Part shown: positions 33,377 to 49,774 of the stretch, piece by piece | Numbering within the stretch: position 1 is the first letter of the stretch | Layout of the letters: each line of letters begins with the position of its first letter | Assembly: GCA_036253495.1 (NCBI GenBank) | Contig: GCA_036253495.1_4125.1 | Direction: 5' to 3' (one strand) | Length of the DNA: 64,000 nucleotides | Origin: a phage | The notes under the pieces: model-generated | Seen by the model: the letters and a program-made list of their open reading frames with translations, nothing else | What the model was told of the DNA's origin: nothing | Database searches by the model: none | Made by a program: the position numbers and the translations under genes

Positions 33377-33407
33377 TAAAAAAAGCCCACTTAATGTGGG
33401 CTTTTTG
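33377..33407. terminator. bidirectional Rho-independent terminator
   Basis: AGCCCACTTAATGTGGGCT hairpin flanked by A-run and T-run between convergent genes. Confidence 0.7.
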
Positions 33408-36400
33408 TTATTTGTGTTTTATGTGTAAAGTGTCTAATATTGTATTGAACAATGATTTAGCAGAAATCATGATTACTTGATCAAAATCTTTAGTATAAGA
33501 AATATTAGCAGTACTGGAAGAATCTTTCACCTCATCCGGTAATGCATCAAACTCTTCTTTTTCCATAATCTTTTCAAGTTCTTCACGAGAAATGGCTTTT
33601 ACGTTTTCAATAGTCCTTAGTTGTATATTATAATCTTTATAATACGAAACTAAGTTCGTTGCGTATGAACCATCTTTAGATGCTGTGCCAGTAAAATCAT
33701 AACATCCTGTATCAGTACTAACCCAATCGATTTTCCCTGAACTACCACTATATACACCTTTGTTAAATTTAATATTAACAACATCGCCAATAGTTTTCAA
33801 TATACCACCTTTACATTCATTAAATGCGTTTAATTGATAACTTGTAGTCATATAGAATTTCGGTTCTAATGTAACAGTATCACCTACAGTTGCTTTCATA
33901 TCAGAAACACTTAAGAACAATTCATTAAATCCTTTTGAATAAGTCTTGGTAATTGTTGTCCCATCCCTGTTAGTTACTGTGTATTCTAAGTCCAATTCAC
34001 AAATACTATTCAATGATAAGTAAGGGATATCAAATTTATCAGTACTAGCATCATAAGGACATCTTGAGGATGGTAGTATACCAGTAGGGTTTGGTACGTA
34101 TTGAACTTTTGTTAACTCATACCCGCTTGCATTCGCTGGTGTAACTGTAATAGACGGTGTAGATATTCCTTTCATTCCACAGAAGTATATGTTATCTGGA
34201 AAATCATTTATTACGAAGTCAGTGACAGGAATATCATAAGTATCTTTATCAGTCCAATTAAGAACAACATTAGAACTGGTTGGATCAACAATATGTTCAC
34301 TAGAACCACAGAAATATACTGATTTGGTATTAGTAATCATTAGTAATGTTTTGGATGATGAGTTCAATTCAAGAACATCTTTCACTTCAAGACCAGATGG
34401 TAATGTCAATGGTAACTTCGTGAATGATGTTAAATCTTGTTCATCTTTAACACCACTAGTCCCCGCCGGAAACTTACCTGAACCATAGAAAACACCTTTA
34501 TTCGTCATGAAATACATGAACGGGGTTGATGTTCCTTTGTCAAATAGTTTAATGTCATCACATGTTAAACCATCAGGTAAACTTACTTTAGATGGAGTTC
34601 TATAAACACCAGGCTTAATACCACCTTCACCATTACTTACATCACCTAGTACATATAAATCTTTACCTAGTTTTAAGAACATTGATTTATTTTTAGCACA
34701 CAAGAATGTATCATATGATTTATCATCAATTGGTAGCTTGGTATACTCGGTGTATGTATGTATTGAATCATCAATCCACGAACTATCACCACTAATGTAA
34801 ATGTGATTGTTTCTGTCAATATAATATGAATACACATCAGTACTGTTCATATATAAAGCATTTAGTGCATTTGTTTTCACTAAGTGATTGAACTTAAGAA
34901 CTTGTTTTCCATCGTACTTATGGGAGTTGACACCAATATCACCATTCAGGCTACTACCAAATGAATATATGTGACCACGTGGTAATAGAACTTGAACACC
35001 ACTTTTGGTTAAATTATATTTGGAGTGCAAGAGATCGTTATATACAACTCTAACTTTCTTAAAGATATCAGTACATTCAATCCACGATTTAGATGGTGTA
35101 CCATCCATTCCTATTATTGCTGGATCACCATAATAATAAGCTTTATTTTCATATGATATTTTAAAAGATGATTTACCATCTTTTGTATTAGCACTGAAAT
35201 ACACATCTTTACTATCTTTAATTGGATAAGTACTATTCTCTACAAAAGTATTATATGAGATATCGTTGTTAGCACTATTAAGAACAAAAGAAGTAGATGT
35301 ACTATTGGACTTATAGACTGCTACGGAAGATGTATCACTGAAATCAATTTTAGTGAACGTATCTTTGTATGTTTCGTTTAATAATCCTACATAAAAAACA
35401 TCAGTGCCATCAGTAACGAATATAGCATTTCTATTATTACATAAAGAAGTAATATTTTTTACTACTTTATTTGAATTATAGTTCGGTAACTTCTTTAATC
35501 CACGAACAAAATTATCACAAATAATACCAGTACCATAGAAGTTATAATCTTTATCACAGTATATAAATGCTGTATCATATGGTGAAGTACTTAAATTCTT
35601 ATAGAATGGGAATGGAGTGAATGTGAATTGTAGAACATTACGCAATTCCCCTACTGTCTCTGTTGGGAATTGTCTGTTTTTATTATTTCCAAGAAAAACA
35701 ACTCTATCTGTTAGGTATGTGTACATAATTCCATATGGTTTTACGTACAAGTCATTATATCCTAATGATAATTTAGTTGGTGATGTTAGTGGACCGGAAT
35801 TTATTTTATTTTGGTTAAAAGAAAATTCATTTGAATTATAACCAGCCCCATATGTATTACCATCAGTACTTAAATAATATACAGTAGCTTCCCCTGCTCC
35901 AAGAAAAGTCTTTACATCAGTTGCTAACGTTTTTTTGAAAGTTGGATAAAATTTATTATATGTTCCCGTTCCCATCATCAGTTCACCATTGCGGTTATGA
36001 CCACGAGCATATAGAATACCTTTGTCTGTATCTAAGAAGAACATTCCATTATATGTTTTGTAAATCTTACCTTTTGTAATATCGAAATTGGAAAAATCAT
36101 CACTAATATCAATGAATATTGTCTCAAGGTTATCTTCAAGGGAGTTTAGAGATTTACCACAATACCATACTGAGTTATCTTTTTTAACAGCAACACAACC
36201 ACACGGACTGGCATCAAAATATGTTACATCGGAAAGAACCAGTGATAAGTTCTTTGTACTGCAATAGTTATCCATTGCATATAAATCGGAATCTTTAAGT
36301 ATATATACGGAATTCCCAACCGCTTTAATCGAATTTATCATGTTTATATCCTCATAAATTGATACCAATTCTAATGTATTTACCCACTTAAAGTACAAAA

Positions 36401-36431
36401 AATGATCAATTAAATGGGGAATCTTTAACAA
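33408..36431 (-). CDS. large RCC1-like repeat protein (putative adhesin; N-terminus uncertain)
   Basis: 1007 aa; GHNRNGELMMGTG and GSSLNGDIGVNS repeat signatures; last gene of the minus-strand cassette. Confidence 0.65.
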   Translation of the reverse strand: MLKIPHLIDHFLYFKWVNTLELVSIYEDINMINSIKAVGNSVYILKDSDLYAMDNYCSTKNLSLVLSDVTYFDASPCGCVAVKKDNSVWYCGKSLNSLEDNLETIFIDISDDFSNFDITKGKIYKTYNGMFFLDTDKGILYARGHNRNGELMMGTGTYNKFYPTFKKTLATDVKTFLGAGEATVYYLSTDGNTYGAGYNSNEFSFNQNKINSGPLTSPTKLSLGYNDLYVKPYGIMYTYLTDRVVFLGNNKNRQFPTETVGELRNVLQFTFTPFPFYKNLSTSPYDTAFIYCDKDYNFYGTGIICDNFVRGLKKLPNYNSNKVVKNITSLCNNRNAIFVTDGTDVFYVGLLNETYKDTFTKIDFSDTSSVAVYKSNSTSTSFVLNSANNDISYNTFVENSTYPIKDSKDVYFSANTKDGKSSFKISYENKAYYYGDPAIIGMDGTPSKSWIECTDIFKKVRVVYNDLLHSKYNLTKSGVQVLLPRGHIYSFGSSLNGDIGVNSHKYDGKQVLKFNHLVKTNALNALYMNSTDVYSYYIDRNNHIYISGDSSWIDDSIHTYTEYTKLPIDDKSYDTFLCAKNKSMFLKLGKDLYVLGDVSNGEGGIKPGVYRTPSKVSLPDGLTCDDIKLFDKGTSTPFMYFMTNKGVFYGSGKFPAGTSGVKDEQDLTSFTKLPLTLPSGLEVKDVLELNSSSKTLLMITNTKSVYFCGSSEHIVDPTSSNVVLNWTDKDTYDIPVTDFVINDFPDNIYFCGMKGISTPSITVTPANASGYELTKVQYVPNPTGILPSSRCPYDASTDKFDIPYLSLNSICELDLEYTVTNRDGTTITKTYSKGFNELFLSVSDMKATVGDTVTLEPKFYMTTSYQLNAFNECKGGILKTIGDVVNIKFNKGVYSGSSGKIDWVSTDTGCYDFTGTASKDGSYATNLVSYYKDYNIQLRTIENVKAISREELEKIMEKEEFDALPDEVKDSSSTANISYTKDFDQVIMISAKSLFNTILDTLHIKHK

Positions 36432-36561
36432 ATGAATTCATGATGTACTTGATGAATTGCCCATACCAACGGATTCCCCAGTCCCAGCATACCACATGGT
36501 ATTATCGAACTTTTTTATAATTGTAGTATCATAACCACACCAAACATCATCAACATTAGTA

Positions 36562-37914
36562 TTACAACAATTGTATTTCTGTGAGTGTTTGATATGTTGT
36601 ACCGTTGTACACACCTCTCCAATATACCCTACCTTCAGTACTAACCACTAATAGTCCATATGTTGTAAACCCAAGAGTACCACCAACATACATAGCATCT
36701 TTAATTCGAATACCAATGTCTTCATATGTAAATGAAGCGACTGCTCCCGCTTGCCACGAAGGACTAGCGTAGTAATCACTATAAACACCATGTGCTTTAT
36801 ATATTGATGTTGTTCCTGGTTCAAAAATTACAGTTCCACAGTAGTTCATTCGTATTTTAGTACTGGATGAAGTCGGTACATTTATACCTATGCCATCTTT
36901 TATCCCTGTCGTTAGGACGTTAAAACCACCCGCCACACGGTTGACGTCATTCGCACCGATTAAAAACATACCAACGTTGTATCCCATATAATATACACTA
37001 CTACTTCCATTCCAGAAAGAAAAACCACCACCATTACCACAGCGATATAGTTGTGAATTTGAGCAGTACATCATACCTTCGTTTGTCGCATCAAATTCAT
37101 CTGCTGTTCCTATTGTAGCTACAGTAGTCCACGTTTTAATCACTTGGTTTGTACTAGCTGGTGTTTGTATACCATATCGTATATTATATCCCTTACCAAC
37201 GATTGTACCATCTTCTAATTTAGCATAAAGTACAGGTCTATTACCAACAAAATACATATTATTGTGTGACATGTCTATTGTGCATCTTAATGAAACTACT
37301 TTTTGTGTCAATTGATTATCTTTAGTAAAAGAAGTAAAGTAGTAATCCGATGTTGAGTTGTTTATTAAACCTTGTATTGACAATCCCATATACCAGATTT
37401 CACCATTGCTGTTTAATGCTGCCAAAATACAACTATATTTTGAAGTGTATGCTGGTGATGTTGTTGAAGTTGCTGGTCCTTTATCATATCCACCACAGAA
37501 TACCATCTCCACAACTTCACCTACGTTCGAAAAATAAGAAGATACATTGATAAAACCATTTGTTATAAAAGGTGCTGTATTCATACTTGAATGTGTGAAT
37601 ATCCCATTTGCATATACACCACAAAAATGATATGAACCATCATTATCTTGGACTATTATTCCATTTGATAGTAACCAAAAATTGTTTACATTTTTTCTTA
37701 CTAATTCAACTCCTGCACCATTGGTTGGTGTTATACCAAAAGAAACATATTTTGTTTGACCAATACCATATAAATTTCCATTAGTTGCTAGTATTGCACC
37801 AAACCAGTTCCCACCACCATTCCTATCATGACCCATACCAATGGAGTCGAATTTCTTTACAGTAGGAACTTCAACTTTATTCCCATAATCCAACATTCTT
37901 ACAAAAGGTAACAT
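36562..37914 (-). CDS. RCC1-like propeller paralog 1 (putative receptor-binding protein)
   Basis: Start reassigned to MLPFVRMLDYGN after AAAGGAGG RBS; G-N-G-x-L-G repeats. Confidence 0.7.
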   Translation of the reverse strand: MLPFVRMLDYGNKVEVPTVKKFDSIGMGHDRNGGGNWFGAILATNGNLYGIGQTKYVSFGITPTNGAGVELVRKNVNNFWLLSNGIIVQDNDGSYHFCGVYANGIFTHSSMNTAPFITNGFINVSSYFSNVGEVVEMVFCGGYDKGPATSTTSPAYTSKYSCILAALNSNGEIWYMGLSIQGLINNSTSDYYFTSFTKDNQLTQKVVSLRCTIDMSHNNMYFVGNRPVLYAKLEDGTIVGKGYNIRYGIQTPASTNQVIKTWTTVATIGTADEFDATNEGMMYCSNSQLYRCGNGGGFSFWNGSSSVYYMGYNVGMFLIGANDVNRVAGGFNVLTTGIKDGIGINVPTSSSTKIRMNYCGTVIFEPGTTSIYKAHGVYSDYYASPSWQAGAVASFTYEDIGIRIKDAMYVGGTLGFTTYGLLVVSTEGRVYWRGVYNGTTYQTLTEIQLL

Positions 37915-37985
37915 ATATCCTCCTTTATTCATTATATTATATTTAATCAAAAAAGAAAAGCCAGTACAGAGTACTGGCATTTAAA
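37915..37985 (-). promoter_or_regulatory. conserved inter-paralog module
   Basis: Hairpin GCCAGTACTCTGTACTGGC + T-run, then GATTAAATATAATATAATGAATAAAGGAGG. Confidence 0.6.
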
Positions 37986-37989
37986 ATAA

Positions 37990-39165
37990 TCAAAATGTAG
38001 GAAGTTTGAATTCTCTCATAACAGATGAACTGCTTGCAGATACATTATCTGGTGATTTCCCTGCGTAGTATAATTTATTATCAATGAACATATACAATGT
38101 TGCATCATTTCCTGCTACAAGTGATTCACTTTTCTTAAATTTAACACCACTAGGTAAAATTGCTTCAACAAATGAACCTGATTCTCTTGTAGTATTATTT
38201 GCCAATTGACCATTGTTATTATAACCAGTACTATAAATTTTACCTGAACTATAATATACGAGTCCACGAGTACTAGTGTTTTCTATTCGAATGAATTCAC
38301 TATCATCTGGAACTGTCGTTGATAGTACTGGGTTTAACTTATAAGCAGATGATACATTATTATTACCCAATTGACCATAACCTTGAAAGCCTAGTGTATA
38401 CATAGGACATGATTCTGGTGTACCTTTTGTTATAATACCAATATAATTCACACTACAAAAAATGTCTATTACTTCTGTAATAGGTGTACCCTTATATTGA
38501 ACCCAAGGGAATACATACGATTGTTGCTTACCATTTCCCAAAGTACCGGAAGTTGTTGTCCCAGTACGCCACATTGTATCATCAAGTTTAATAATCCAGT
38601 TAGCTGTCGTTATCGATGAACAGAATTTTTTAACATTATCCACTAAAAATGTAAATTGATTATAATATGATGCAGTGTTTATACCAAACTTAGCACCAGT
38701 ATTATCACCTAACAAATATAAACTATTATCTGTACCTAAAATCAAAGCATAATCATAACCCACGTATATATCTTTAATTCTTGAAATTCCAAATTGTGTA
38801 AAATAGCTTGTACATTCTGTGAATGTTGTTATATTATTGGTTGTATTATTACCTAGCCATTTATCTAAACCACTATAAAAGAATCTATCATCATTTGTGC
38901 GTATTAGACAAAAAGCGTTCATTGTACTGCACCAAAAATCTTTAACATTGCTATATATTTTTGTCCATTCAGTTACTGCATTAGTATGACCTAAACCAAA
39001 AATTCCACCATTCTGAAGACCAATAGCCCATATTGAACCATTTTTATCAAGCATCATTGTACATGTATGTGAATAACCACCCGATGGTGTAACTAATTTA
39101 ACAAAATTGGGAATATATGGTAAAACTTTATTTCCATAATCCAACATTCTAACAAAAGGTAACAT
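37990..39165 (-). CDS. RCC1-like propeller paralog 2
   Basis: N-terminus MLPFVRMLDYGN; GYGQLGNN and GYNNNGQLANN repeats. Confidence 0.7.
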   Translation of the reverse strand: MLPFVRMLDYGNKVLPYIPNFVKLVTPSGGYSHTCTMMLDKNGSIWAIGLQNGGIFGLGHTNAVTEWTKIYSNVKDFWCSTMNAFCLIRTNDDRFFYSGLDKWLGNNTTNNITTFTECTSYFTQFGISRIKDIYVGYDYALILGTDNSLYLLGDNTGAKFGINTASYYNQFTFLVDNVKKFCSSITTANWIIKLDDTMWRTGTTTSGTLGNGKQQSYVFPWVQYKGTPITEVIDIFCSVNYIGIITKGTPESCPMYTLGFQGYGQLGNNNVSSAYKLNPVLSTTVPDDSEFIRIENTSTRGLVYYSSGKIYSTGYNNNGQLANNTTRESGSFVEAILPSGVKFKKSESLVAGNDATLYMFIDNKLYYAGKSPDNVSASSSSVMREFKLPTF

Positions 39166-39236
39166 AATTCCTCCTTTATTCATTATACTATATTTAATCA
39201 AAAAAGAAATGCCAGCATCGAGTACTGGCATTATTG
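39166..39236 (-). promoter_or_regulatory. conserved inter-paralog module
   Basis: Same hairpin/T-run/TATAAT/RBS block. Confidence 0.6.
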
Positions 39237-40424
39237 TTATAGTTGTCTTGGTGTATCAAGTACATATCTATTTGTACTAGGACCACCATCATCATACGTT
39301 CCGGTTGAATAGATATTTTTCATATCAGTTAGAAATGTACGATACGAACCTCTATATATTTTTATTTTATCATACATAGAATATGTTATTTGTGCTGGCA
39401 GTGGACATGCAGTAAATTTACCAATAGTAACATTAGAACCAACACCCAACGAACCAGCATAACTACTCGCATTTAAACCAGTTGCATATACACCAGTACT
39501 CGTAACTAGTATACTAGATTGTGTTGGGTATCCAGTATGGATTGAATACAAAGTTCCAGTTGGTAGAGTAGTACTATTATTTCCTAATACTGCTAGTGCT
39601 GTACTAGTCGTAGTGTTATTACCCCATGCACCATTACTAGCTAAACCACCCACAAGGAACTGTCGTGCTCCTGTACTTGGATTTTCAACTAAAGCACTGA
39701 CCGCACCACTTGAACAACCAGTATATTGTAATGTTTTTGTATATGTTGTACTTGGCTGATATAAAGTATATTCATTATAGGGAGTCCATGTAGTACTGGA
39801 ACTTATACCGGATGTACCACCACCAATATATAAATTATTTTGTGTATCAAAAAACATTACACAGTTATTTGTTGACTGTATTTGTGCAATATCAACATTA
39901 GGTGTGACAGCTTTTACAAATGATCCATCTGTTATTTGTTGAGTTTGTCCAGTACCATCAGCGAATTGTCTACCCCCACTCCAACCAGTACTCCATATTG
40001 TATTATTATCCATTAAGAAAGTAAACCACGTAGTACCTGCATACATCTGTTTAATTGAAGTACTTGAACTTTGTGTGTACAAATTTTCAATATATTGGTT
40101 ATAACTTAAAAATGATGTAGTACTAGTTTCTAAACCAATATGACTACCATATCCACAATAAAAATAATTTAAGTCATTATCTTGTACTAACAAAGTTCCT
40201 TGTGTCACCCAGCAATCTTTGACATTTTCTCTAATTAATGTCCATGATCTTAGTGCATTATTATTTCCTCTCCCAAATTTTCCAAAACTATTACTTCCTC
40301 GTGCGTATAGTTGACCATCAGTATAAAGTACAACAACATCAGTATCAGTTGGTATTATTTTCTTAATTTGAAGTGGAATAGGTACAATATTTCCATAATC
40401 AAACATTCTAACAAAAGGTAACAT
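39237..40424 (-). CDS. RCC1-like propeller paralog 3
   Basis: N-terminus MLPFVRMFDYGN; GSNSFGKFGRGNNN repeat. Confidence 0.7.
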   Translation of the reverse strand: MLPFVRMFDYGNIVPIPLQIKKIIPTDTDVVVLYTDGQLYARGSNSFGKFGRGNNNALRSWTLIRENVKDCWVTQGTLLVQDNDLNYFYCGYGSHIGLETSTTSFLSYNQYIENLYTQSSSTSIKQMYAGTTWFTFLMDNNTIWSTGWSGGRQFADGTGQTQQITDGSFVKAVTPNVDIAQIQSTNNCVMFFDTQNNLYIGGGTSGISSSTTWTPYNEYTLYQPSTTYTKTLQYTGCSSGAVSALVENPSTGARQFLVGGLASNGAWGNNTTTSTALAVLGNNSTTLPTGTLYSIHTGYPTQSSILVTSTGVYATGLNASSYAGSLGVGSNVTIGKFTACPLPAQITYSMYDKIKIYRGSYRTFLTDMKNIYSTGTYDDGGPSTNRYVLDTPRQL

Positions 40425-40494
40425 AATTCCTCCTTTATTCATTATATTATATTTAATCCAAATAAGAAAGCCAGTATCAAGTACTGGCCTATAT
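40425..40494 (-). promoter_or_regulatory. conserved inter-paralog module
   Basis: Same block, hairpin GCCAGTACTTGATACTGGC. Confidence 0.6.
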
Positions 40495-41664
40495 TTAAAC
40501 TGGTGAATCTAATACAAATTCTAAACTACTAATGCCACCATATGTGACATTTGTCCCTGTGCTATATACAAAATTACCATCAGTTATATAAGTTCGGTTA
40601 TACCCACCTGCCATCTGCGACTTACTATAATCAAACCCATCAGGAACGATTGCTTTGGTATATACTAATGCATTATTAGATGTACCAATACCTAACATAC
40701 CAGCTCCTGAAGATTTATTGTAGCCGCAACAATATATACCATCTGTTGTAGCAATAACTTGGTTATAATATGAAGTAATGTTAGCAATGCTTACTACATC
40801 ACCGGGTGGCATTAGTGAAGCAGTTTGAACCTCAAATGCTCTATAATCACTGAGAGAACCATTTATCCCATCTGCTTGTGCACCAAATATTCTCGAACCG
40901 CCATTTGCGATGATGGTTTTACCAGTGGGATCAGTACCAATTGCCATTGCCATTGAAGTACTATTCTCCATATAGTACTTGATATTAATTGTATTTCTTA
41001 AGCTGGTAGGAGCACCATAATATATAGTATATAACTTACCTCCTGAACTTGTAACTGCATTTACTCTTCCTGTATAAAATAGCCATCCTTGGTTTGTAAC
41101 ATAACCGTGCATTAAATTACTTGCAAACAATTTAACAGGTAATTGATCTGCTGCGGTCGGAACAGTACTTTTGACGAATTTTCTAGCAACATTGTTAGTT
41201 GTTGTCCCATCACCCAACTGACCATCACCCCCTGCTCCAGTACTCCATATTGTTTGGTCTGTTAGTAATACACTTGTAGTCTGATAACTAACTGCTATAT
41301 CTAATATTGGTAATGTTAACGTATCGAATGTTGGCATAGCAGAAGTCCATATTGATACTGCTGCCCCTGGCATACCAACAGTTGTTGAACTTCCACTGTA
41401 CCATATTTCATCATTGCTTTTCTTAATAACTATCGACGTGGCTCCCATCCAAAAATCTTGAACATCAGAAGTGCTAAAAGTCCATGTAGTAACAATATTT
41501 TTGTGACCTAAACCCAAAAGACCATTTGTATTCTCACCACGCACATATAAATCACCACTGTTTGTTAAAACAGCAACATTATAGTTGTTAGCTAGTATTT
41601 TTTTAATATTTGGTTTAGCAGGTGCAATATTCCCATACTCTAACATTCTTACAAAAGGTAACAT
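40495..41664 (-). CDS. RCC1-like propeller paralog 4
   Basis: N-terminus MLPFVRMLEYGN; GDGQLGDGTT and GAGMLGIGTS repeats. Confidence 0.7.
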   Translation of the reverse strand: MLPFVRMLEYGNIAPAKPNIKKILANNYNVAVLTNSGDLYVRGENTNGLLGLGHKNIVTTWTFSTSDVQDFWMGATSIVIKKSNDEIWYSGSSTTVGMPGAAVSIWTSAMPTFDTLTLPILDIAVSYQTTSVLLTDQTIWSTGAGGDGQLGDGTTTNNVARKFVKSTVPTAADQLPVKLFASNLMHGYVTNQGWLFYTGRVNAVTSSGGKLYTIYYGAPTSLRNTINIKYYMENSTSMAMAIGTDPTGKTIIANGGSRIFGAQADGINGSLSDYRAFEVQTASLMPPGDVVSIANITSYYNQVIATTDGIYCCGYNKSSGAGMLGIGTSNNALVYTKAIVPDGFDYSKSQMAGGYNRTYITDGNFVYSTGTNVTYGGISSLEFVLDSPV

Positions 41665-41734
41665 AATTCCTCCTTTATTCATTATATTATATTTAATCCA
41701 AATAAGAAAGCCAGTATCAAGTACTGGCTTTAAT
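41665..41734 (-). promoter_or_regulatory. conserved inter-paralog module
   Basis: Same block. Confidence 0.6.
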
Positions 41735-42883
41735 TCATTGTATAAATGACATATCAACTTCGGTATATCTTGTAGTGTACTGCCCAGAACTTCCACCCAT
41801 TACTAGATTGGAAAAACCAGTATAAAATAACTTACCTTCATCTGTGAGAATCAAACTACCGATGTTATTCAGTACTAAACTGTAAGAACTATTAAAATTA
41901 GCATAGGACTGGGTATAATAGAACTGATTTGTAAGATTACCAACACCCAATTGTCCACCAGTGTTAACCCCAGTTGCAAATATCGTAGTACCAAATCTGC
42001 GAATATGTGAGGCCATATTGCCGACGCAACAATGTACATTCTGAACATCCGAATTCAATAAAGTTGGTGTTGTGTATTGCTTAAGTGTTGTGCCTGTACC
42101 GAATTCATTACCATATGATACCCCATACTGTGTACCACAAGCGTACAATTTATTATCATCTTTAATAAAAAATGTACTCTGATAACTTACATCGACATCT
42201 ATAACATTAGTCTGTATTCTAACAACTCCAGTACTAGCAGTTTGATTGCCTGTCCCTAACTGATAGTAAGTGTTAATACCACAACCCCATAATGTATTAT
42301 CTTCTTTTAGGTATATGTTACCAACAGCTTTTTTTACCGATGATATGGCTTCAATCTTAACAAAGGCGTTAAATGAATTTGTATTTGTGCCATTACCAAA
42401 AGATGATCTGGTTGATGTGCTGTTTGTTCCGCAGCAATATAAAGTACCATCAGTTGTTATCAAATTCACTTTAAGATCACTGTAACTACTCATGTATTTT
42501 ATATCAGAAACATTAATACCACTGGATGTTATCCATGAAGTACAATCTGTCCACGTGTTATAATATGCACCTGAACCAGAAAACGCACTCGGACTTCCAG
42601 TTATAAACACTTTTCCAGTACCGTCTTCTTCATATAATTGACAACCACTACTGTTATTTTCCAAAAGGACTCTTTTAACATTAGTCGCACTAAGAATAAA
42701 TTTACTCGACGCTACACCAGTTCCAGTACCCTGACTGACTGCCGCTGATGCATACAAATTTTTCGTGTATGTATCATGAAAATACATAGCACTACCGCCG
42801 GAATATATTTTAAAACGTGTACTAGGATCAGGCGGGTTAGGTGCAATATTCCCATAATCTAACATTCTTACAAAAGGTAACAT
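41735..42883 (-). CDS. RCC1-like propeller paralog 5
   Basis: N-terminus MLPFVRMLDYGN; YYQLGTGNQ and GGQLGVGN repeats; closest paralog of 45279..46427. Confidence 0.7.
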   Translation of the reverse strand: MLPFVRMLDYGNIAPNPPDPSTRFKIYSGGSAMYFHDTYTKNLYASAAVSQGTGTGVASSKFILSATNVKRVLLENNSSGCQLYEEDGTGKVFITGSPSAFSGSGAYYNTWTDCTSWITSSGINVSDIKYMSSYSDLKVNLITTDGTLYCCGTNSTSTRSSFGNGTNTNSFNAFVKIEAISSVKKAVGNIYLKEDNTLWGCGINTYYQLGTGNQTASTGVVRIQTNVIDVDVSYQSTFFIKDDNKLYACGTQYGVSYGNEFGTGTTLKQYTTPTLLNSDVQNVHCCVGNMASHIRRFGTTIFATGVNTGGQLGVGNLTNQFYYTQSYANFNSSYSLVLNNIGSLILTDEGKLFYTGFSNLVMGGSSGQYTTRYTEVDMSFIQ

Positions 42884-42954
42884 AATTCCTCCTTTATTCA
42901 TTATACTATATTTAATACAAAAAAGAAAAGCCAGTATCAAGTACTGGCATTATG
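42884..42954 (-). promoter_or_regulatory. conserved inter-paralog module
   Basis: Same block. Confidence 0.6.
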
Positions 42955-44064
42955 TTATTTTGGTAAATCAATTTTAGTAAAGACTGCAACATCCTCGCTT
43001 GCACCGGGAATGGCGTAATACGTTCCAGTACTATATACATCTCCATTTTTGGTTAATATTGAAGTCAAACCATCACTAAAAAGAACATCCCTAATCTCAC
43101 TAACTTCAACGGGTAATTGTAAATTTGTAGCACTATATATAGCACCAGTTTGAGAATTGTTTAATCCCAAACCACGGTTCGCCCCAACACCCTTCTGATA
43201 TGTACTGGTAATTACCATTTGTGTAGCAGTATTTAATGCAGGTGAATTCGTCATAAACAACGGAGAACTATTAGGAAAAGTACTTGCAGGAACTGCACGG
43301 AATGTAGTCGTGCCTGAACTAAGAAAGTTTGGAGTTTGACCACATACGAAATATGATGTACCATTATAGTAATTAAATGCATTACCACCAATGGCTGCAT
43401 CGATTACACCAGAACTACGTAATCCCCAAGTGTTAATTTGTGTTTGGTCCCCTGTACCATGCTGCCCACTGCTATTCCATCCAGAACTATATAGCTTATT
43501 ATCTAATGTAATATACATACTATCATTTGCATTAGTCATTACTTTACGCACGTTAGTAGCACATTGAGTTAATGTGTAAATCGATGATGAGCCAATACCT
43601 AAAGAACCACGATATCCATTATCTCCTGCACCATAGAGTACTGAACTAGTGCTAAGTACAAATATTAAACCATTTGTACATACAATATTAGCAATTTCAC
43701 TCACTGGTATAGCATTGGTAAACCAATTAGTCCTTTCAACTAATATAGTACTGTAAGAAGTAGTTGTAGAAGATGAGAACCAGTACGTTTCACCCGATGT
43801 CCATATCGTATTATCATTTTTAATAATAACAAGTGTACGACCACCCACGAAAAAATTAGAAACATCTGAACTTACTAATATCCATGAAGATACCGTGTTG
43901 TTATTACCATTTCCAGATTCACCACCTTGATTTCTACCTATGTAATATAAATCATGTGAATCAGTCAATAAGAATTGACCCTGTGTAGAAGCACCAACTT
44001 TAATTATATTTTTAGGACCGGGTGTAATATTTCCATAATCAAACATTCTAACAAAAGGTAACAT
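42955..44064 (-). CDS. RCC1-like propeller paralog 6
   Basis: N-terminus MLPFVRMFDYGN; GWNSSGQHGTGDQ repeat; coupled to upstream gene with only an RBS between. Confidence 0.7.
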   Translation of the reverse strand: MLPFVRMFDYGNITPGPKNIIKVGASTQGQFLLTDSHDLYYIGRNQGGESGNGNNNTVSSWILVSSDVSNFFVGGRTLVIIKNDNTIWTSGETYWFSSSTTTSYSTILVERTNWFTNAIPVSEIANIVCTNGLIFVLSTSSVLYGAGDNGYRGSLGIGSSSIYTLTQCATNVRKVMTNANDSMYITLDNKLYSSGWNSSGQHGTGDQTQINTWGLRSSGVIDAAIGGNAFNYYNGTSYFVCGQTPNFLSSGTTTFRAVPASTFPNSSPLFMTNSPALNTATQMVITSTYQKGVGANRGLGLNNSQTGAIYSATNLQLPVEVSEIRDVLFSDGLTSILTKNGDVYSTGTYYAIPGASEDVAVFTKIDLPK

Positions 44065-44074
44065 ATTTCCCTCC

Positions 44075-45205
44075 TTAATTTAATAATGCCCCTGGCAAAT
44101 CCACTTTGACGAATTGTGCATATGCTGAGGAATTTTGATCAAAGTTTGGTCCCAATCCATAAAATGAGCTAATGCCGTCTTCATTTGTGTATATGATATA
44201 AACGTTCTTTACATCATTTCCGCATATAAATCGAATGTCTTTCGTTTGTGTTCCCGCTGGAACATTACGAAGGTTAACAACGCCATTACTTGCATTGTTA
44301 TCAGCCGACGCAATTGGTAATTGATTTTGATCATATTGACCACGCATATTTTTTGCATCTAAACCAAACACAGTATTTGATACCGCACCAACTTTCAAAA
44401 ATGAACCAAAACTATTATTGAATGACTTTGGAAATTTACCACTATAAACACTTCTCCCATCTGATAATACCGCTGAACTGAATGCCCCGCTATTCGATAT
44501 GGCAAATTCATTGTAAGGAAGTGTACCCATTTTGGTATATACAGAATATGAATTAGTGGAAGTATTATCAATAATCTTATTACCATTATATCCAATACCA
44601 TACTGGTATCCGTCTGCATCTTGAACTATACACAAAGGACCACTTGGGGTTTGTGTCAACGAAACAACACGTTCAACTTGTATATCACCAAATGTATTTC
44701 TTCGCCATGTTCTATCTATTATAGTACTAGTATTACCCAAAGATAATGCCACACTATATAATAGATTGTTTTCAGTAAAAATGGCAACATAATATGGGTG
44801 GTTAATAACTTGCTTCATCCCAGCATCAATAACTTCCTGTGGAATATGATCAGTAACATCCAACCAATCAAGGTTAGATGATGCAATATCTGGAGTACTG
44901 AATTTGTCAAATCTAGTTGAGCCACAAACTAGCACTCTATCATCATTTGTCAAAGCCACTGTGCTAGTCTGCATATTAGAACTGAATGATTTAACATTAC
45001 TAATGTTAGACTTGTACCAACCCTTATCAGCAGCACCCACCGTGAATCCGGTTCCCATTGATCCACTTGTACTTGTACCATAAGCCCACATCTCACCACT
45101 ATATGTTAGTGCCATACAGTGGCTTCCATTTGCTTGGAAATCCTTTATACCAGTGGGAGCAACCACTGTATTCCCATAATTAAACATTCTAACAAAAGGT
45201 AACAT
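44075..45205 (-). CDS. RCC1-like propeller paralog 7 (more divergent)
   Basis: N-terminus MLPFVRMFNYGN; RBS GGAGGG. Confidence 0.65.
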   Translation of the reverse strand: MLPFVRMFNYGNTVVAPTGIKDFQANGSHCMALTYSGEMWAYGTSTSGSMGTGFTVGAADKGWYKSNISNVKSFSSNMQTSTVALTNDDRVLVCGSTRFDKFSTPDIASSNLDWLDVTDHIPQEVIDAGMKQVINHPYYVAIFTENNLLYSVALSLGNTSTIIDRTWRRNTFGDIQVERVVSLTQTPSGPLCIVQDADGYQYGIGYNGNKIIDNTSTNSYSVYTKMGTLPYNEFAISNSGAFSSAVLSDGRSVYSGKFPKSFNNSFGSFLKVGAVSNTVFGLDAKNMRGQYDQNQLPIASADNNASNGVVNLRNVPAGTQTKDIRFICGNDVKNVYIIYTNEDGISSFYGLGPNFDQNSSAYAQFVKVDLPGALLN

Positions 45206-45278
45206 ATTTCCCTCCTTTATTCATTATACTATATTTAATCAAAAATAAAAGCCAGTACTTGAGTACTGGCATATTAAT
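45206..45278 (-). promoter_or_regulatory. conserved inter-paralog module
   Basis: Same block, hairpin GCCAGTACTCAAGTACTGGC. Confidence 0.6.
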
Positions 45279-46427
45279 TCATTGTATAAATGACATATCT
45301 ACTTCTGTATAATTAAGAACGTTCTGTCCAGAAATACCACCCATTACTACTATTGCAATGCCACAATAATATAATTTTCCAGTATCCGTAAGTATAAGTG
45401 ATCCAGATGGACTGCGTACCAAATTACAAGAGGTATTAAACGAAGTATATGAAGGAGTATAGGAGTACTGATTAATATTATTACCAACACCTAATTGACC
45501 AGACGAGTTGCTTCCAGATGCATAAAGTACTTCATCACCTTTAACTATATGTGATGCCATGTTACCAACACAAGTATATAAACTATAAACACCTGCACTC
45601 AATAATGTGGGAGTTTTATATTGTATATCAGTAGAAGAGGAAGTACCACCTGTACCAAATTCGTTCCCATATTGTGCACCGAACTGTTTACCACAAGCGT
45701 ACAAATTATTATCCGATTTGATAAAAAATGTACTCTGATAACTTACATTAAAATCTATAACATCCGAAGAAATCATCGTCACCCCAGTAATAGAAGTTTG
45801 ATTACCCGTGCCCAACTGGTAGTAATAGTTAAAACCACAACCCCATAAAGTATTATCTTCTCGCAAATAAATGTTACCAACTGCCTTTTTAACCGAAGTT
45901 ATAGTATCTACTCTTTTGAATGTGTTAAAAGAATTAATGTTTGTACCATCACCAAATGATGATATGTTCGATATATTGTTAGCTCCACAACAATACAATG
46001 TACCATCGTTTGTTATCAAATTCACCTTCATATCATAAAAACTACTCATGTATTTTATATCAGAAACATTAATACCACTTGATGTTATCCACGTAGTACA
46101 GTCCGTCCACAAAGTTTTTCTATCAGTTACACCAGTGAATGCCTTCGTGTTACCAGTGATAAAAACTTTTCCAGTACCTTTCTCTTCATACAATTGACAA
46201 TCACTACTGTTATCTTCCAATAGAACTCGTTTAACATTCTCCGCACAAAGAATAAATTTACTCGATGCTACACCTGTACCAGTACCCCAATTCGTCGCAG
46301 AAGATGCATACAACTTATCAGTATAAGTATCATGAAGATACATGGAATCACTGGAATATATTTTAAAACGTCCATCATCACCAGGGGCAATATTCCCATA
46401 ATCAAACAATCTAACAAAAGGTAACAT
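45279..46427 (-). CDS. RCC1-like propeller paralog 8
   Basis: N-terminus MLPFVRLFDYGN; strong similarity to 41735..42883 along its length. Confidence 0.7.
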   Translation of the reverse strand: MLPFVRLFDYGNIAPGDDGRFKIYSSDSMYLHDTYTDKLYASSATNWGTGTGVASSKFILCAENVKRVLLEDNSSDCQLYEEKGTGKVFITGNTKAFTGVTDRKTLWTDCTTWITSSGINVSDIKYMSSFYDMKVNLITNDGTLYCCGANNISNISSFGDGTNINSFNTFKRVDTITSVKKAVGNIYLREDNTLWGCGFNYYYQLGTGNQTSITGVTMISSDVIDFNVSYQSTFFIKSDNNLYACGKQFGAQYGNEFGTGGTSSSTDIQYKTPTLLSAGVYSLYTCVGNMASHIVKGDEVLYASGSNSSGQLGVGNNINQYSYTPSYTSFNTSCNLVRSPSGSLILTDTGKLYYCGIAIVVMGGISGQNVLNYTEVDMSFIQ

Positions 46428-46529
46428 AATTCCTCCTTTATTCATTATAATATATTTAATCAAAAAAGAAAACCCTTGACACCCTTTCAGTACTGATGTA
46501 CTATATGAGAAATCTAAGGAGAATCGTAC
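46428..46529. promoter_or_regulatory. divergent promoter region between the two cassettes
   Basis: Minus side carries the TATAAT-rich motif and RBS for paralog 8; plus side has TTGACA (46475) and AAGGAG before ATG 46530. Confidence 0.5.
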
Positions 46530-46757
46530 ATGCCATATGCTCTAAAGTACTACATCAATGAACTAAATGAACTAGAGTACGCAAAGGTTCTCTCTGACCA
46601 ATCGTGGCTAATTGAACTAAAAAATCAGAAGAGCACTGGGTGTAACCTTATGCTTGGTAGTGCACTGAATACCCTTACTGTGAGCATTGTACACAATACA
46701 CTATTAGGGGATACCCGTAAACAATTTTTAAACATCTTAGTACTAGTGGCTATATGA
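46530..46757 (+). CDS. small tandem-family protein 1
   Basis: 75 aa; YY..L N-terminus and hydrophobic L/I/V C-terminal tail. Confidence 0.5.
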   Translation: MPYALKYYINELNELEYAKVLSDQSWLIELKNQKSTGCNLMLGSALNTLTVSIVHNTLLGDTRKQFLNILVLVAI

Positions 46758-46954
46758 ACATTAACCCGTACTACATCAATGCATTGCACCCTGGGCTACA
46801 AGATGCAATGAAGAACCAAAAAACAGTACTGAAAAATGCTAAACGCATACCAGGACTCCTGAACTCAAACAGGAATAACCTCATCTGGAATGCAATAGAA
46901 GGTAACGAAAGTATGCAGTACTATTTCATCTTAACACTACTATTGGAGTACTAA
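46754..46954 (+). CDS. small tandem-family protein 2
   Basis: 66 aa, ATGA overlap, ends YYFILTLLLEY. Confidence 0.55.
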   Translation: MNINPYYINALHPGLQDAMKNQKTVLKNAKRIPGLLNSNRNNLIWNAIEGNESMQYYFILTLLLEY

Positions 46955-46955
46955 T

Positions 46956-47165
46956 ATGAATACTGAACATAAAGAATTCTACACCAAATACCTCAGCAAC
47001 GAAGAACAAATGTTTCTAAGGAGTGTACCACCTGTAAGTATAGACACACCCAACACAAGGAATTGCTTTAATAATTGTATACGTAGTACTCTAGAAGCTA
47101 TTGAATGCAATAACAAAAATATGCAGTACTCAAGTTTAATCGGACTAATATACTTCTATGAATAA
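46956..47165 (+). CDS. small tandem-family protein 3
   Basis: 69 aa; HKEFYTKYL ... LIGLIYFYE. Confidence 0.55.
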   Translation: MNTEHKEFYTKYLSNEEQMFLRSVPPVSIDTPNTRNCFNNCIRSTLEAIECNNKNMQYSSLIGLIYFYE

Positions 47166-47352
47166 TCATAAAGATTTCTACTGTAGTAAACTACACAAGC
47201 AAGACCAGCTATCATTCTCTTTAGCACCACCTATGAGAAAGGATAATCTATATTACAATTACGATTTCAGGATGGCGACACGTTATGCAATAGAACATCA
47301 GTTCCCTGAAACTAAGTACCGCTCTATCCTGAACCTCATCTTTAAGTTCTAA
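47158..47352 (+). CDS. small tandem-family protein 4
   Basis: 64 aa; HKDFYCSKL ... LNLIFKF. Confidence 0.55.
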   Translation: MNNHKDFYCSKLHKQDQLSFSLAPPMRKDNLYYNYDFRMATRYAIEHQFPETKYRSILNLIFKF

Positions 47353-47363
47353 AAAGGTACTAT

Positions 47364-47576
47364 ATGAAAACTACAAACATTCATCAGTACTACATAGATA
47401 TTCTACCTAAAGATGTACAGTTCATACTTAAACAAGAATTCAGTACTTTTAAAAAACTTAAAAGAACCGCACCTTCAGCAATCATCCTGCACCACAAACA
47501 TGTCGTGCGTAATATTCTACAAGGTGCAACAGGGACCGAGTACTTTAATATAGTAAGGCTAATTACATTACAATGA
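47364..47576 (+). CDS. small tandem-family protein 5
   Basis: 70 aa; HQYYIDIL ... VRLITLQ. Confidence 0.5.
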   Translation: MKTTNIHQYYIDILPKDVQFILKQEFSTFKKLKRTAPSAIILHHKHVVRNILQGATGTEYFNIVRLITLQ

Positions 47577-47758
47577 ATCATATAAGCTACTATTACCAAA
47601 AACTATCCGACAGAGACAAGTACAGCCACAACTCCCATGTGTGGTACTACAAACGCGGCAGTATAAGAGACAAACAACATTACTTCTGTACTGCTATAAA
47701 AGAAGTACTAACAACTAAGTACACGTACAGAGCAGTACTTAAACTTATTGAAATGTAG
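47573..47758 (+). CDS. small tandem-family protein 6
   Basis: 61 aa; YYYQKL ... VLKLIEM. Confidence 0.5.
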   Translation: MNHISYYYQKLSDRDKYSHNSHVWYYKRGSIRDKQHYFCTAIKEVLTTKYTYRAVLKLIEM

Positions 47759-47766
47759 AGAATACA

Positions 47767-47946
47767 ATGCTAGAATACTACCTAAGCGTAATTTACCCAG
47801 AAGATAGATACGGCTTCAATTACTTCTCAATGAGCTATCATTGTAGTTCGCAAAGAAAACAAAGAAAATTACTCCTGAATTGTACTAAATTGGCACAGGA
47901 CGAAATGTTCACATATAATGAAGTACTGAAACTAATTTCTATCTAA
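47767..47946 (+). CDS. small tandem-family protein 7
   Basis: 59 aa hand-translated (below track cutoff); MLEYYLSVIY ... EVLKLISI. Confidence 0.5.
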   Translation: MLEYYLSVIYPEDRYGFNYFSMSYHCSSQRKQRKLLLNCTKLAQDEMFTYNEVLKLISI

Positions 47947-47954
47947 GGTACACT

Positions 47955-48134
47955 ATGCAAGAATTCTATATCTATAAACTCCAGAACAAAGATAGATACA
48001 TCTATAATCAATTCCAAAGGTACTACACAGTCGGGAACAAAAGAGATAAAAAACGATACCTGCTATCATGTACAGTAGAAGCACAAAACGAAAAGTACAC
48101 GTACAGAGAAGTACTGAAACTAATCTCTATATAA
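47955..48134 (+). CDS. small tandem-family protein 8
   Basis: 59 aa hand-translated; MQEFYIYKL ... EVLKLISI. Confidence 0.5.
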   Translation: MQEFYIYKLQNKDRYIYNQFQRYYTVGNKRDKKRYLLSCTVEAQNEKYTYREVLKLISI

Positions 48135-48144
48135 GGAATAAACT

Positions 48145-48324
48145 ATGCTAGAGTACTACACCGATAATCTCAGTACTAAGGATCGTTTCATGTACGACAC
48201 CTTCGTGAAGTACTACAACCTGGGAACAAAAAGTACTAAAACTATTAATCTCAATAGCTGCATTCATCACGTCCTGACAAAAAATAACCCATACAGAGAA
48301 ATAATCTCGCTTGTAACAGTATAA
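48145..48324 (+). CDS. small tandem-family protein 9
   Basis: 59 aa hand-translated; MLEYYTDNL ... EIISLVTV. Confidence 0.5.
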   Translation: MLEYYTDNLSTKDRFMYDTFVKYYNLGTKSTKTINLNSCIHHVLTKNNPYREIISLVTV

Positions 48325-48352
48325 GCAGTATAAGCAATTTAAGGAGACTAAA

Positions 48353-49024
48353 ATGAAACTCAATCCACAAAGCAAACGATACCTACAGCACTTCAAGTAC
48401 CTGCAATCAATCCAGGCTGAATCTACCACTAATGCATATACTTATCACCCTAATGTACTAAAGAACCTAAAGAAAAGTAAAAAAACCAGTACAAATGGAG
48501 TTAACGTATCAAAGAACCTTGAATTGTACATGAAGAAAAATAATATAGCTGTTCATTATATGAATATCTATAATACTGATTTAAAAGTATTGAGTACTAA
48601 TACGAGCATGAAGGTACTAAAGAACGCATCCTTCATCATCCATATGCAGTTGGATAATACCCCGTGCACTTTAATGCTATACTTCGGGAATACATACTTC
48701 TTCGGGAATTGTAACACCTCCCACGATGTCAATACAGCACAATTCCAAATGGGTGGCATATACAGTATGGGTTCAGAAGAAATACACGATAACATGCATT
48801 TCTTCCAACAGCAACGTACAGAAGAAACTAAATCAATTGTAGAATTCCTCAAAGAACTAGAACACAAAGAATTATCAGAAGAAGAACTATTCATGTACAG
48901 TACTGTAATCGATAATCCTGTACTGTACAAAAACGCGTACAATCTTACAAAACATGTACAGGAACTTATCAGTACTAATAAGAAAATTCATCACCTCATT
49001 ACATATATTACAAACTATGCATAA
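48353..49024 (+). CDS. larger protein embedded in the small-protein array
   Basis: 223 aa; N-terminus RYLQHFKYLQ resembles the family start. Confidence 0.55.
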   Translation: MKLNPQSKRYLQHFKYLQSIQAESTTNAYTYHPNVLKNLKKSKKTSTNGVNVSKNLELYMKKNNIAVHYMNIYNTDLKVLSTNTSMKVLKNASFIIHMQLDNTPCTLMLYFGNTYFFGNCNTSHDVNTAQFQMGGIYSMGSEEIHDNMHFFQQQRTEETKSIVEFLKELEHKELSEEELFMYSTVIDNPVLYKNAYNLTKHVQELISTNKKIHHLITYITNYA

Positions 49025-49199
49025 AGAATACTACGTAAGTAAACTTACAATAGATCTCCAAAAACTTATTCCCCAAAAACCTGTAGATTTCAAAGATAAA
49101 AGCCAAACTATATTCTACCGATATCAAACAGAATCTGCAATAAATGAAGATGATATCTATAACTTGTACAATGTACTAACACTTATATACAGGTACTAA
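49017..49199 (+). CDS. small tandem-family protein 10
   Basis: Start at MHKEYYVSKL (track ORF from 48954); ends LTLIYRY. Confidence 0.55.
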   Translation: MHKEYYVSKLTIDLQKLIPQKPVDFKDKSQTIFYRYQTESAINEDDIYNLYNVLTLIYRY

Positions 49200-49200
49200 T

Positions 49201-49389
49201 ATGCACAAAGAATACTACACAAAATATTTCCCAATGTACCTCATAACTAATCTATTAGATAAACCTCGCGGTATCAATGCACAAAACGATAAAAAGTACT
49301 TTACTATGTGCACTAAAGCATGTATACAAGATTATGATAGCTATCATCGAGCACTGTACCACACCCTGTACCTCGCATTCGTGTACTAA
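49201..49389 (+). CDS. small tandem-family protein 11
   Basis: MHKEYYTKYF ... CTKAC ... LYLAFVY. Confidence 0.6.
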   Translation: MHKEYYTKYFPMYLITNLLDKPRGINAQNDKKYFTMCTKACIQDYDSYHRALYHTLYLAFVY

Positions 49390-49398
49390 GGAAATAAT

Positions 49399-49584
49399 AT
49401 GCATAAAGAATACTACATAAATAAACTCCCAATGCATCTACAATACCTTGTACCAACAAAACCATTGGGTATAGAAAAAGACTACGAAAAAGACTACTTC
49501 GTTAAGTGCACTAAATCCTCGATAGATATTGACGACTATAATCGAGTACTGTATCACATCCTTTTACTAATATATAAGTACTAA
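49399..49584 (+). CDS. small tandem-family protein 12
   Basis: MHKEYYINKL ... CTKSS ... LLLIYKY. Confidence 0.6.
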   Translation: MHKEYYINKLPMHLQYLVPTKPLGIEKDYEKDYFVKCTKSSIDIDDYNRVLYHILLLIYKY

Positions 49585-49585
49585 T

Positions 49586-49774
49586 ATGAACGACTATAAA
49601 GAATACTACCAAGATAAACTCCCAATGCATCTCCAACACCTTGTGCCAACAAAACCATTGGGCATAAAAGATCATGCAAAAATAATGTTCCAACAATGTA
49701 CTAAGTACACCCTAATATACGATGACAATCCATATATGCTGTACTACATAACAATGCTAATATTCAGGTACTAA
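49586..49774 (+). CDS. small tandem-family protein 13
   Basis: MNDYKEYYQDKL ... CTKYT ... TMLIFRY. Confidence 0.6.
   Translation: MNDYKEYYQDKLPMHLQHLVPTKPLGIKDHAKIMFQQCTKYTLIYDDNPYMLYYITMLIFRY

Follow-up and report, generated by a model that had tools for sequence, protein, structure and literature searches.

A recombination-shuffled array of tagged RCC1-like propeller genes in an Asteriusvirus jumbo coliphage: candidate peptide-docked binding modules of the virion

Our analysis concerns a 64,000-nt stretch of phage DNA (NCBI GenBank assembly GCA_036253495.1, contig GCA_036253495.1_4125.1; hereafter the window), in which eight consecutive minus-strand genes (36562-46463; 369-450 aa) each open with MLPFVR(M/L)(L/F)(D/E/N)YGN and continue into a predicted RCC1-like beta-propeller. 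We propose that this locus is a recombination-shuffled array of virion binding modules that dock onto the particle by their shared N-terminal peptide, a proposal for which we find the balance of evidence to be about even. It builds on the propeller fold, on the shared peptide (the tag) and its predicted disorder, on the modular occurrence of the tag across folds and genera, on the presence of tagged homologs in virions, and on the mosaicism of the locus, each of which is documented below.

An array of eight tagged propeller genes

The genes are numbered by coordinate, with g8 transcribed first, and their coordinates and lengths are counted from the MLPF methionine as the start. Letters denote cassette types, defined by clustering the bodies of tagged open reading frames (ORFs) from nine Asteriusvirus loci at 60% identity. 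All on the minus strand, the genes are g8 (45279-46427, 382 aa, type D), g7 (44075-45205, 376 aa, type H), g6 (42955-44064, 369 aa, type A), g5 (41735-42883, 382 aa, the second type D copy), g4 (40495-41664, 389 aa, type E), g3 (39237-40424, 395 aa, type B), g2 (37990-39165, 391 aa, type I) and g1 (36562-37914, 450 aa, type J), the last of these being the most divergent of the tagged propellers. An earlier note, made from the sequence alone, had described eight tandem minus-strand RCC1-like paralogs with a shared N-terminus, and both the ORFs and a scan for the tag pattern bear this out. Its consensus, MLPFVRM(L/F)(D/E/N)YGN, holds for g1-g7 but not for g8, whose tag, MLPFVRLFDYGN, has L instead of M at position 7.

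The tag peptide, MLPFVRMLEYGNIAP, is far better conserved than what follows it. Residues M1, L2, P3, F4, V5, R6, Y10, G11 and N12 are invariant across g1-g8, while the bodies of the paralogs are only ~17-29% identical (17-25% when compared with g1), and the tag is likewise conserved in homologs whose bodies are 22-40% identical. A degenerate DNA pattern for the tag has 8 matches in the 64 kb, solely at g1-g8, against 0.02 expected. Its codons differ synonymously within the window and its amino acids are conserved; position 9 varies, and paralogs and genomes have D, E, N, K, Q or V there.

The window derives from an Asteriusvirus jumbo coliphage (121Q/PBECO4/phAPEC6 group), with phage A4 as its closest relative and as the top match of the cassette region (97.5% over half of the region). 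The cassette matches 37 phage records, all of them from jumbo phages of Escherichia or Salmonella that are 310-384 kb in size, and those that were inspected are members of the genus Asteriusvirus (121Q, PBECO4, phAPEC6, G17, A4 and others). These matches bear on the scenario, raised in the earlier note, that the cassette is a single repetitive gene fragmented by sequencing or assembly error. Repeated 5' blocks in the region are the sole point that speaks for such an artefact, and we regard it as excluded: the bodies are 17-25% identical, each gene has its own start and stop, most have their own terminator and promoter block, and the same organisation recurs in the 37 independently sequenced records, to several of which segments of the window are 98-100% identical.

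Profile searches and structure prediction agree that the bodies are RCC1-like. Seven of the eight genes have Pfam RCC1, RCC1_2 or RLD matches; in six (g2, g4, g5, g6, g7 and g8) RCC1 or RCC1_2 exceeds the gathering cut-off, and g3 falls slightly under it for RCC1_2 (21.4 versus 22 bits) with an RLD match at 9.5e-15. For g1 there is no Pfam match, and it is recognised by phrog_4219 (2.4e-16), the profile of a phage 'regulator of chromosome condensation' family, which matches all eight proteins from residue 1 (E 2.4e-16 to 1.5e-114), the matching stretch in g7 being residues 1-255 only. An AlphaFold2 model of g6, built from 24 sequences, has a predicted template modelling score (pTM) of 0.81, and its best Foldseek match is UVR8 (template modelling (TM) score 0.80, E 5e-21), followed by HERC, RPGR and RCC1. 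The g1 model is weaker (predicted local distance difference test score (pLDDT) 62, pTM 0.70), with HERC2 and UVR8 as best matches at E 1e-9, and RCC1-like propellers are the only folds found. The expectations of the earlier note for hidden Markov model searches against RCC1 and for a predicted propeller fold thus both held. We take the bodies to be seven-bladed RCC1-like beta-propellers, the blade number being predicted via the UVR8 match. A search of 1.84 billion representatives with a profile of the paralog alignment returned 139,098 matches, the top 150 of which are giant multi-RCC1 proteins of 924-7235 aa; this search was uninformative about the tag.

The tag itself appears not to be folded. 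In both AlphaFold2 models residues 1-18 have no secondary structure and low confidence (pLDDT 48-59 in g6), so where the earlier note had anticipated a conserved N-terminal adaptor domain, the models place an unstructured peptide of 12-15 residues, predicted to be a free flexible extension and neither a folded domain nor a propeller strand. The best-conserved stretch of the protein is therefore its predicted unstructured extension.

Two alleles of the tag can be distinguished among the Asteriusvirus loci and the window, one acidic, VRM(L/F)(D/E)YGN, and one basic, (A/G)RM(V/I)KYGN. The window and A4 have nearly all acidic tags, 121Q and phAPEC6 mainly basic ones, and BF17, Turkey5, EC.P1 and PBECO4 have both; one cassette type can bear either, such that the alleles coexist and are mixed among cassettes. 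We considered concerted evolution of the tag within genomes and rejected it, since the difference in tag identity between cassettes of different types in the same genome (0.836) and cassettes of the same type in different genomes (0.825) is too small.

The tag is found on other folds and in other genera

In the form MLPF(V/A/G/P/S/T)(R/I)…YGN, the tag heads homologs in every Rak2-like genus examined, including GAP32_001 and GAP32_002 of Cronobacter phage GAP32, five genes of Yersinia phage fHe-Yen9-04 and eight of Erwinia phage Kaldavass. Not all of the proteins that carry it are RCC1-like. A4_245 and CBB_550 are tagged Kelch propellers (Pfam 1e-24 and 3.7e-32), a tagged 674-aa protein is an RCC1-Kelch fusion, and in another tagged protein a ConA-like lectin domain scores above the gathering threshold (Laminin_G_3, 7.2e-8). 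Further payloads are small proteins with weak Pfam matches or none, and for a tagged K-type protein (245 aa) of 121Q and G17 neither Pfam nor PDB sequences gave a match. Payloads other than RCC1 are spread over Asteriusvirus, GAP32, CBB, and the Yersinia and Erwinia phages. When the tag pattern was searched in 2.9 million IMG/VR contigs, 12 stretches were recovered, 11 of them on contigs of 348-378 kb and one on a 24-kb contig. The tag is an independent module found across payload folds and Rak2-like genera.

Tagged proteins in virions

Eight tagged RCC1 paralogs have been detected by mass spectrometry in virions of phAPEC6 (PMC7247149), among them gp003, the counterpart of g4 (82% nucleotide identity), and gp1 of GAP32 has been detected in GAP32 virions. 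Virion presence, which the receptor-binding reading of the earlier note calls for, is thus borne out for homologs, including an ortholog of g4. The tag also follows virion proteins in CBB, which lacks an RCC1 homolog: seven of its proteins that begin with the tag (CBB_536, 537, 548, 549, 551, 552 and 553) were all detected in virions by mass spectrometry, with 2-8 peptides and coverage of up to 50.7%. In these homologs the tag tracks virion incorporation. A more distant parallel comes from the Vequintavirinae phage W70 (OP778610, 23543-27041), where three tandem virion RCC1 proteins, detected with 141-233 spectra, have an N-terminus of their own, MLEM(L/M)NLG; judged by sequence, this is the pattern that would be expected of lineage-specific docking peptides. 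Homologs of the lectin-like GAP32_002 in phages of Vequintavirinae size (CR3, PBES 02, GAP31 and 4MG) align from residue ~16-18 and lack the MLPF tag, and the same payload families thus seem to be reused with lineage-specific N-termini.

In the phAPEC6 locus (MK817115), full-length tagged ORFs of types A, B and K (11803-12912, 8093-9283 and 7287-8021) are missing from or truncated in the annotation, and are therefore undetectable by a proteome search against that annotation; the number of tagged genes in phAPEC6 accordingly exceeds the reported 'eleven'.

Detection in virions could reflect carry-over of proteins that act inside the infected cell, as interaction scaffolds or GTPase regulators, with an N-terminus that serves expression or stability. 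Cellular RCC1-like domains, including those of the HERC, RPGR and RCC1 proteins retrieved by Foldseek, are protein-interaction platforms, the phAPEC6 peptide counts are low (1-5 unique peptides), and the phAPEC6 virion list also contains thymidylate synthase and a RecA-like protein. We nonetheless think such a role improbable, given that tagged proteins occur in three independent proteomes (phAPEC6, CBB and GAP32), with the high CBB coverage noted above, and that the W70 homologs are supported by many spectra. The tag is also kept at the amino-acid level and recurs in several genera on unrelated payloads; because its codons differ synonymously and it recurs in this way, a role purely at the mRNA level is disfavoured. 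Lastly, the expression signals of the array are late-like rather than early (see below).

A stronger competitor is packaging inside the head, with the N-terminus as a capsid-targeting sequence of the kind found in T4 internal proteins, the packaged proteins being either ejected to act in the host, for example against its defences, or part of a DNA-organising inner body, as the label 'DNA condensation' would have it. The T4 internal-protein locus is likewise hypervariable, encoding unrelated proteins with a common N-terminal targeting peptide of ~10 residues. Tagged homologs are indeed virion-associated, phAPEC6 has an inner body of which its authors nominated the RCC1 proteins as candidate components, and rapid turnover of cassettes would fit a counter-defence role too. 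The composition of the paralogs argues the other way. They are 39-49 kDa with a pI of 5.0-8.0 and a net charge of -6 to +2, have no basic tail, and consist to 36-43% of S, T, N and G, unlike DNA-condensing proteins or T4 internal proteins; because they are near-neutral to acidic and lack a basic tail, DNA condensation is disfavoured and DNA binding is unlikely. There is no conserved Glu within the first 30 residues of the paralogs and genomes compared, and since position 9 also varies, there is no T4-type (L/I)-x-E protease site. Moreover, a 40-kDa seven-bladed propeller would need to unfold for passage through the tail tube, and the other payloads carrying the tag include folds typical of surface binding, namely Kelch propellers and ConA-like lectin domains. 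We therefore regard head packaging as unlikely, though a good deal less so than an intracellular role, and prefer the reading in which the tag docks binding modules onto the particle.

Expression modules upstream of the array genes

A 29-nt promoter and ribosome-site block, ATTAAATATANTATAATGAATAAAGGAGG, occurs in seven exact copies in the window (0.00 expected) and nowhere else in it, upstream of every array gene except g6. At six of these genes (g1, g2, g3, g4, g5 and g7) a GCCAGTA..TACTGGC hairpin with a T-run lies directly upstream of the block. Folding energies of the six hairpins are -10 to -13.2 kcal/mol (z-scores -3.5 to -6.0). Where six genes had been described as sharing the same ~70-bp block, the hairpin does occur at six, but the expression block is shared by seven; the accompanying suggestion that the genes have their own expression signals holds for most of them. 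The modules, all on the minus strand, lie at 45206-45276 for g7 (terminator hairpin 45251-45270 at -13.2 kcal/mol, then T-run, promoter-like block and ribosome site), 42884-42954 for g5 (hairpin 42930-42948), 41665-41734 for g4 (hairpin 41707-41731), 40425-40494 for g3, 39166-39236 for g2 and 37915-37985 for g1, the last three likewise consisting of hairpin and block. The module of g8 (46428-46463) has the promoter-like TTAAATATATTATAAT and the ribosome site AAAGGAGG without an upstream hairpin (-2.3 kcal/mol); g8 opens the array. g6 directly follows g7, is preceded by a ribosome-binding site only, and is read as co-transcribed with g7.

The block holds TTAAATA overlapping TATAAT, together with the strong AAAGGAGG ribosome site. 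Its TAAATA core resembles ATAAATA, the predicted late-gene motif of CBB, and a similar motif precedes one virion structural gene in the window; on these two grounds we infer that the array is probably expressed late. The first unit in G17, PBECO4 and 121Q bears GGGTAAATA instead of the block. In other genera a GGGTAAATA-type or similar GTAAATA motif is usual at the first array gene, and the rest are coupled via TAAGGAG; a terminator, promoter-like block and ribosome site for nearly every gene is a trait specific to Asteriusvirus. A scan for host sigma-70 promoters found no enrichment over shuffled sequence (72 versus 79 expected); in the block TATAAT is perfect and the -35 element weak, and the scan favours neither the presence nor the absence of a host-type promoter there. 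One sigma-70-like promoter, TTGACA-17-TACTAT (46476-46504), lies just upstream of the neighbouring plus-strand array of small genes.

Cassette exchange between phages

The nine Asteriusvirus genomes contain ~30 cassette types, 8-16 per genome and in an order that differs between genomes. Only types A (g6, present in 9/9 genomes) and B (g3) are universal; in the window the types follow one another as D H A D E B I J. The nucleotide identity of its cassettes to their counterparts in relatives is 74-100%, bar two weak partial matches in phAPEC6, and the closest counterparts lie in different phages. Thus g1, g2, g4 and g6 are 99.5-100% identical to A4, and a 977-aa untagged gene that follows g1 (see below) is 98.4% identical to A4, as compared with 98.2% to 121Q for g5, 99.3-99.8% to BF17, Turkey5 and EC.P1 for g7, which is absent from A4, and 99.1% to EC.P1 for g8. 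Segment by segment, the window matches different phages at 98-100% identity and is in this sense a mosaic. The exception is g3, which is 91.7% identical to A4 between flanks that are 99.6-100% identical; all of this divergence lies within 39237-40490, the span of g3 and its 5' module, and to judge from the sequence the g3 allele has been replaced relative to A4.

Colinearity with A4 is lost at 41731, in the hairpin before g4, and regained at 42839, inside the tag codons of g5, so that exactly one unit, that of g5, is inserted relative to A4. Homology blocks shared with four other phages end at 42839/40, 44021-44080, 45169/70 and 45273. The earlier note had suggested that the 5' blocks are substrates for cassette exchange, and comparison of related genomes upholds this: insertions and replacements proceed by the unit, and block ends fall in the modules. 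The unit of exchange is clearly the cassette, and the crossovers themselves may lie in the modules, although alignments of unrelated cassettes, which have nothing but the modules in common, are bound to end there in any case.

The two type D genes, g5 and g8, are ~78-84% identical to each other in nucleotide sequence. Since the closest copy, at 98-99% identity, lies in 121Q for g5 and in EC.P1 for g8, they look like separate acquisitions and not a recent local duplication.

The ninth gene and the surroundings of the array

The earlier note ended the cassette with a ninth propeller protein of 1007 aa. The ORF is real (33408-36431) and encodes propellers, but translation probably begins at the ATG at 36341, which yields a protein of 977 aa (33408-36341, minus strand) without the tag. 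It has two tandem RCC1-like propellers and a C-terminal region of ~290 residues: a complete paralog body can be aligned to residues 9-334 (hhalign probability 98.4%), the second propeller lies at ~residues 385-700, and the C-terminal ~290 residues match neither the propeller profile nor Pfam. The ORF matches phrog_4219 at 8e-31, and the gene has its own GGGTAAATA late-type motif (36377-36385) ~40 nt upstream. Among the genomes compared, A4 is the only other one to have this gene. Its A4 counterpart (4844-7781) is annotated as two overlapping coding sequences of 668 and 314 aa, a split due either to a frameshift or to a sequencing error in A4.

A 40-codon RCC1-blade fragment (36438-36560, minus strand) with neither a start codon nor a tag is located between g1 and the gene for the 977-aa protein. 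It matches paralog residues ~67-98 (blastp E 1e-4), is 74% identical in nucleotide sequence to the split gene at the end of the 121Q array, and looks like the stump of a deleted cassette.

The minus-strand array is an island amid small plus-strand genes. It is closed by a bidirectional terminator (33380-33406), beyond which lies a convergent plus-strand gene for a DUF1190 lipoprotein (32825-33376; Pfam 4.9e-32); this gene is a conserved convergent neighbour of the tagged cluster in other Rak2-like genera (CBB_547 and Yersinia phage g526). At the other end, a second tandem paralog family adjoins the cassette, with ~18 small plus-strand genes of 59-102 aa (46530-50360) that share a recurring '(H/Y)KEYY…' start and a hydrophobic end resembling '…LIY(R/K)Y' and have no Pfam match; this array is kept in 121Q (genes 249-265) and G17. 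Upstream of the DUF1190 gene, tightly packed or overlapping plus-strand genes of ~105-150 aa (30361-32825) may form a third tandem family, and they correspond to runs of hypothetical genes in relatives (A4_228-234 and probably 121Q_224-232). No tRNA genes were found in the window.

Discussion

We envisage each unit of the array as an insulated transcription unit. A terminator hairpin would end the preceding unit; a late-type promoter-like element (TTAAATA overlapping TATAAT) and the strong ribosome site would then drive expression of 12-15 codons for the flexible peptide MLPFxRxxxYGN, followed by a monomeric seven-bladed RCC1-like propeller. The peptide would be a common plug, docking varied binding modules at one kind of site on the particle, and the propellers would be interchangeable ligand-binding modules, serving as accessory adhesins or in host recognition. 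The ~110-nt module at every gene start would be a site of homologous recombination at which whole cassettes are inserted, deleted or replaced, and each isolate would therefore have its own repertoire.

Several points weigh against this reading. Docking via the peptide, exposure on the outside of the particle and ligand binding are all steps that we infer, and the precedent for docking peptides consists of trimeric beta-helix tailspikes encoded in tail-fibre clusters, while the proteins here are presumably monomeric propellers. The locus is far from recognisable tail genes, its neighbours being small hypothetical genes and the DUF1190 lipoprotein gene. The virion evidence comes from homologs in other phages, and the peptide counts in phAPEC6 are low. 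Acidic and basic tag alleles coexist in several genomes, such that one socket must tolerate both or there must be two sockets. The late-promoter assignment is a putative one, drawn from motif resemblance alone. Finally, block ends within the modules are partly expected, because the modules are the sole sequence shared by unrelated cassettes.

More speculatively, MLPFxRxxxYGN could be a universal plug for a socket on Rak2-like particles, perhaps located on the whiskers or capsid fibres of phAPEC6 and CBB, with one virion showing up to ~16 unrelated modules (RCC1 and Kelch propellers and lectin domains) and with the repertoire reshuffled at the 5' module. This would amount to combinatorial adhesin display distinct from host recognition by tail fibres. 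Both phages, with their hair-like whiskers or capsid fibres, have proteomes rich in tagged proteins. We advance this extension tentatively, as one that may well prove wrong and that commands clearly less confidence than peptide docking as such.

Jumbo phages of this group have been proposed for therapy, and their host recognition is poorly understood; the label 'DNA condensation' borne by a dozen abundant paralogs per genome is misleading. Should the tag prove to be a docking peptide, it would explain how many different binding modules are mounted, and related genomes could be searched with it, as a rule based on sequence, for virion proteins whose fold is unknown; in phAPEC6 this rule already brings out several ORFs that the annotation omits or truncates. 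As a short handle, the peptide could also serve to load engineered proteins onto what is a very large virion. The standard module of terminator, promoter, ribosome site and tag is, in addition, a clear natural example of gene cassettes made ready for recombination.

Comparison with known systems

The array, its RCC1 annotation and its association with virions are already known. In more than 30 genomes, relatives have the array genes annotated as 'regulator of chromosome condensation' or 'putative DNA condensation protein', and papers of 2017 and 2020 mention the array as 'DNA condensation' proteins (PMC5259590, PMC7247149), so the view of the earlier note that such arrays are not a standard described module does not stand. 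The array genes are not discussed in the papers on UE-S1 and Sharanji. We came across no account in the literature of the shared tag, of its presence on unrelated folds in several genera, of its correlation with virion presence, of the insulated per-gene expression module or of the cassette mosaicism. The RCC1 arrays of Asteriusvirus and other Rak2-like phages (121Q_234-248, PBECO4, phAPEC6 gp001-010/549/551 and GAP32 gp1) belong to the same family and the same locus, and the window differs from them in the combination and order of its cassettes and in its 977-aa double-propeller gene. The published reading of these proteins as DNA-condensing or as part of an inner body is unsupported by the composition of the paralogs in the window.

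A second comparison is with branched systems of receptor-binding proteins (KP32/KP34, Menlow, phiK64-1/RaK2 and K1E/K1-5/SP6; PMC6872550), in which secondary receptor-binding proteins attach by short conserved N-terminal docking peptides of as few as 7 aa, as modelled for phiK64-1 and RaK2. The array resembles these systems in having a short N-terminal peptide shared by unrelated virion proteins, and in having several interchangeable modules per phage whose distal parts are exchanged horizontally. It differs in that the modules are propellers of ~40 kDa (with Kelch and lectin payloads in sister genera) and not trimeric beta-helix depolymerases, in that up to 16 proteins share one peptide, and in that the locus lies outside the tail-fibre cluster. 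We did not detect a candidate for a T4gp10-like anchor partner within the 64-kb window, and membership in the branched docking-peptide family is not established.

The internal proteins of T4 (IPI-III and Alt) are alike in their shared N-terminus of ~10 residues, their association with the virion and their variable locus. Unlike them, the array proteins have no conserved Glu site, are large and neutral or acidic instead of small and basic, and carry payloads with binding folds. Lastly, cellular RCC1, UVR8, HERC and RPGR share the seven-bladed propeller with its GxNxxGQLG-type blades, as reflected in the TM score of 0.80 to UVR8. RCC1 proper acts in guanine-nucleotide exchange on Ran or in chromatin binding, and for the phage proteins the net charge and lack of a basic tail make binding to DNA unlikely. 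As compared with these cellular proteins, to which they are 9-17% identical, the phage proteins are virion-associated and begin with a tag that is specific to this group of phages.

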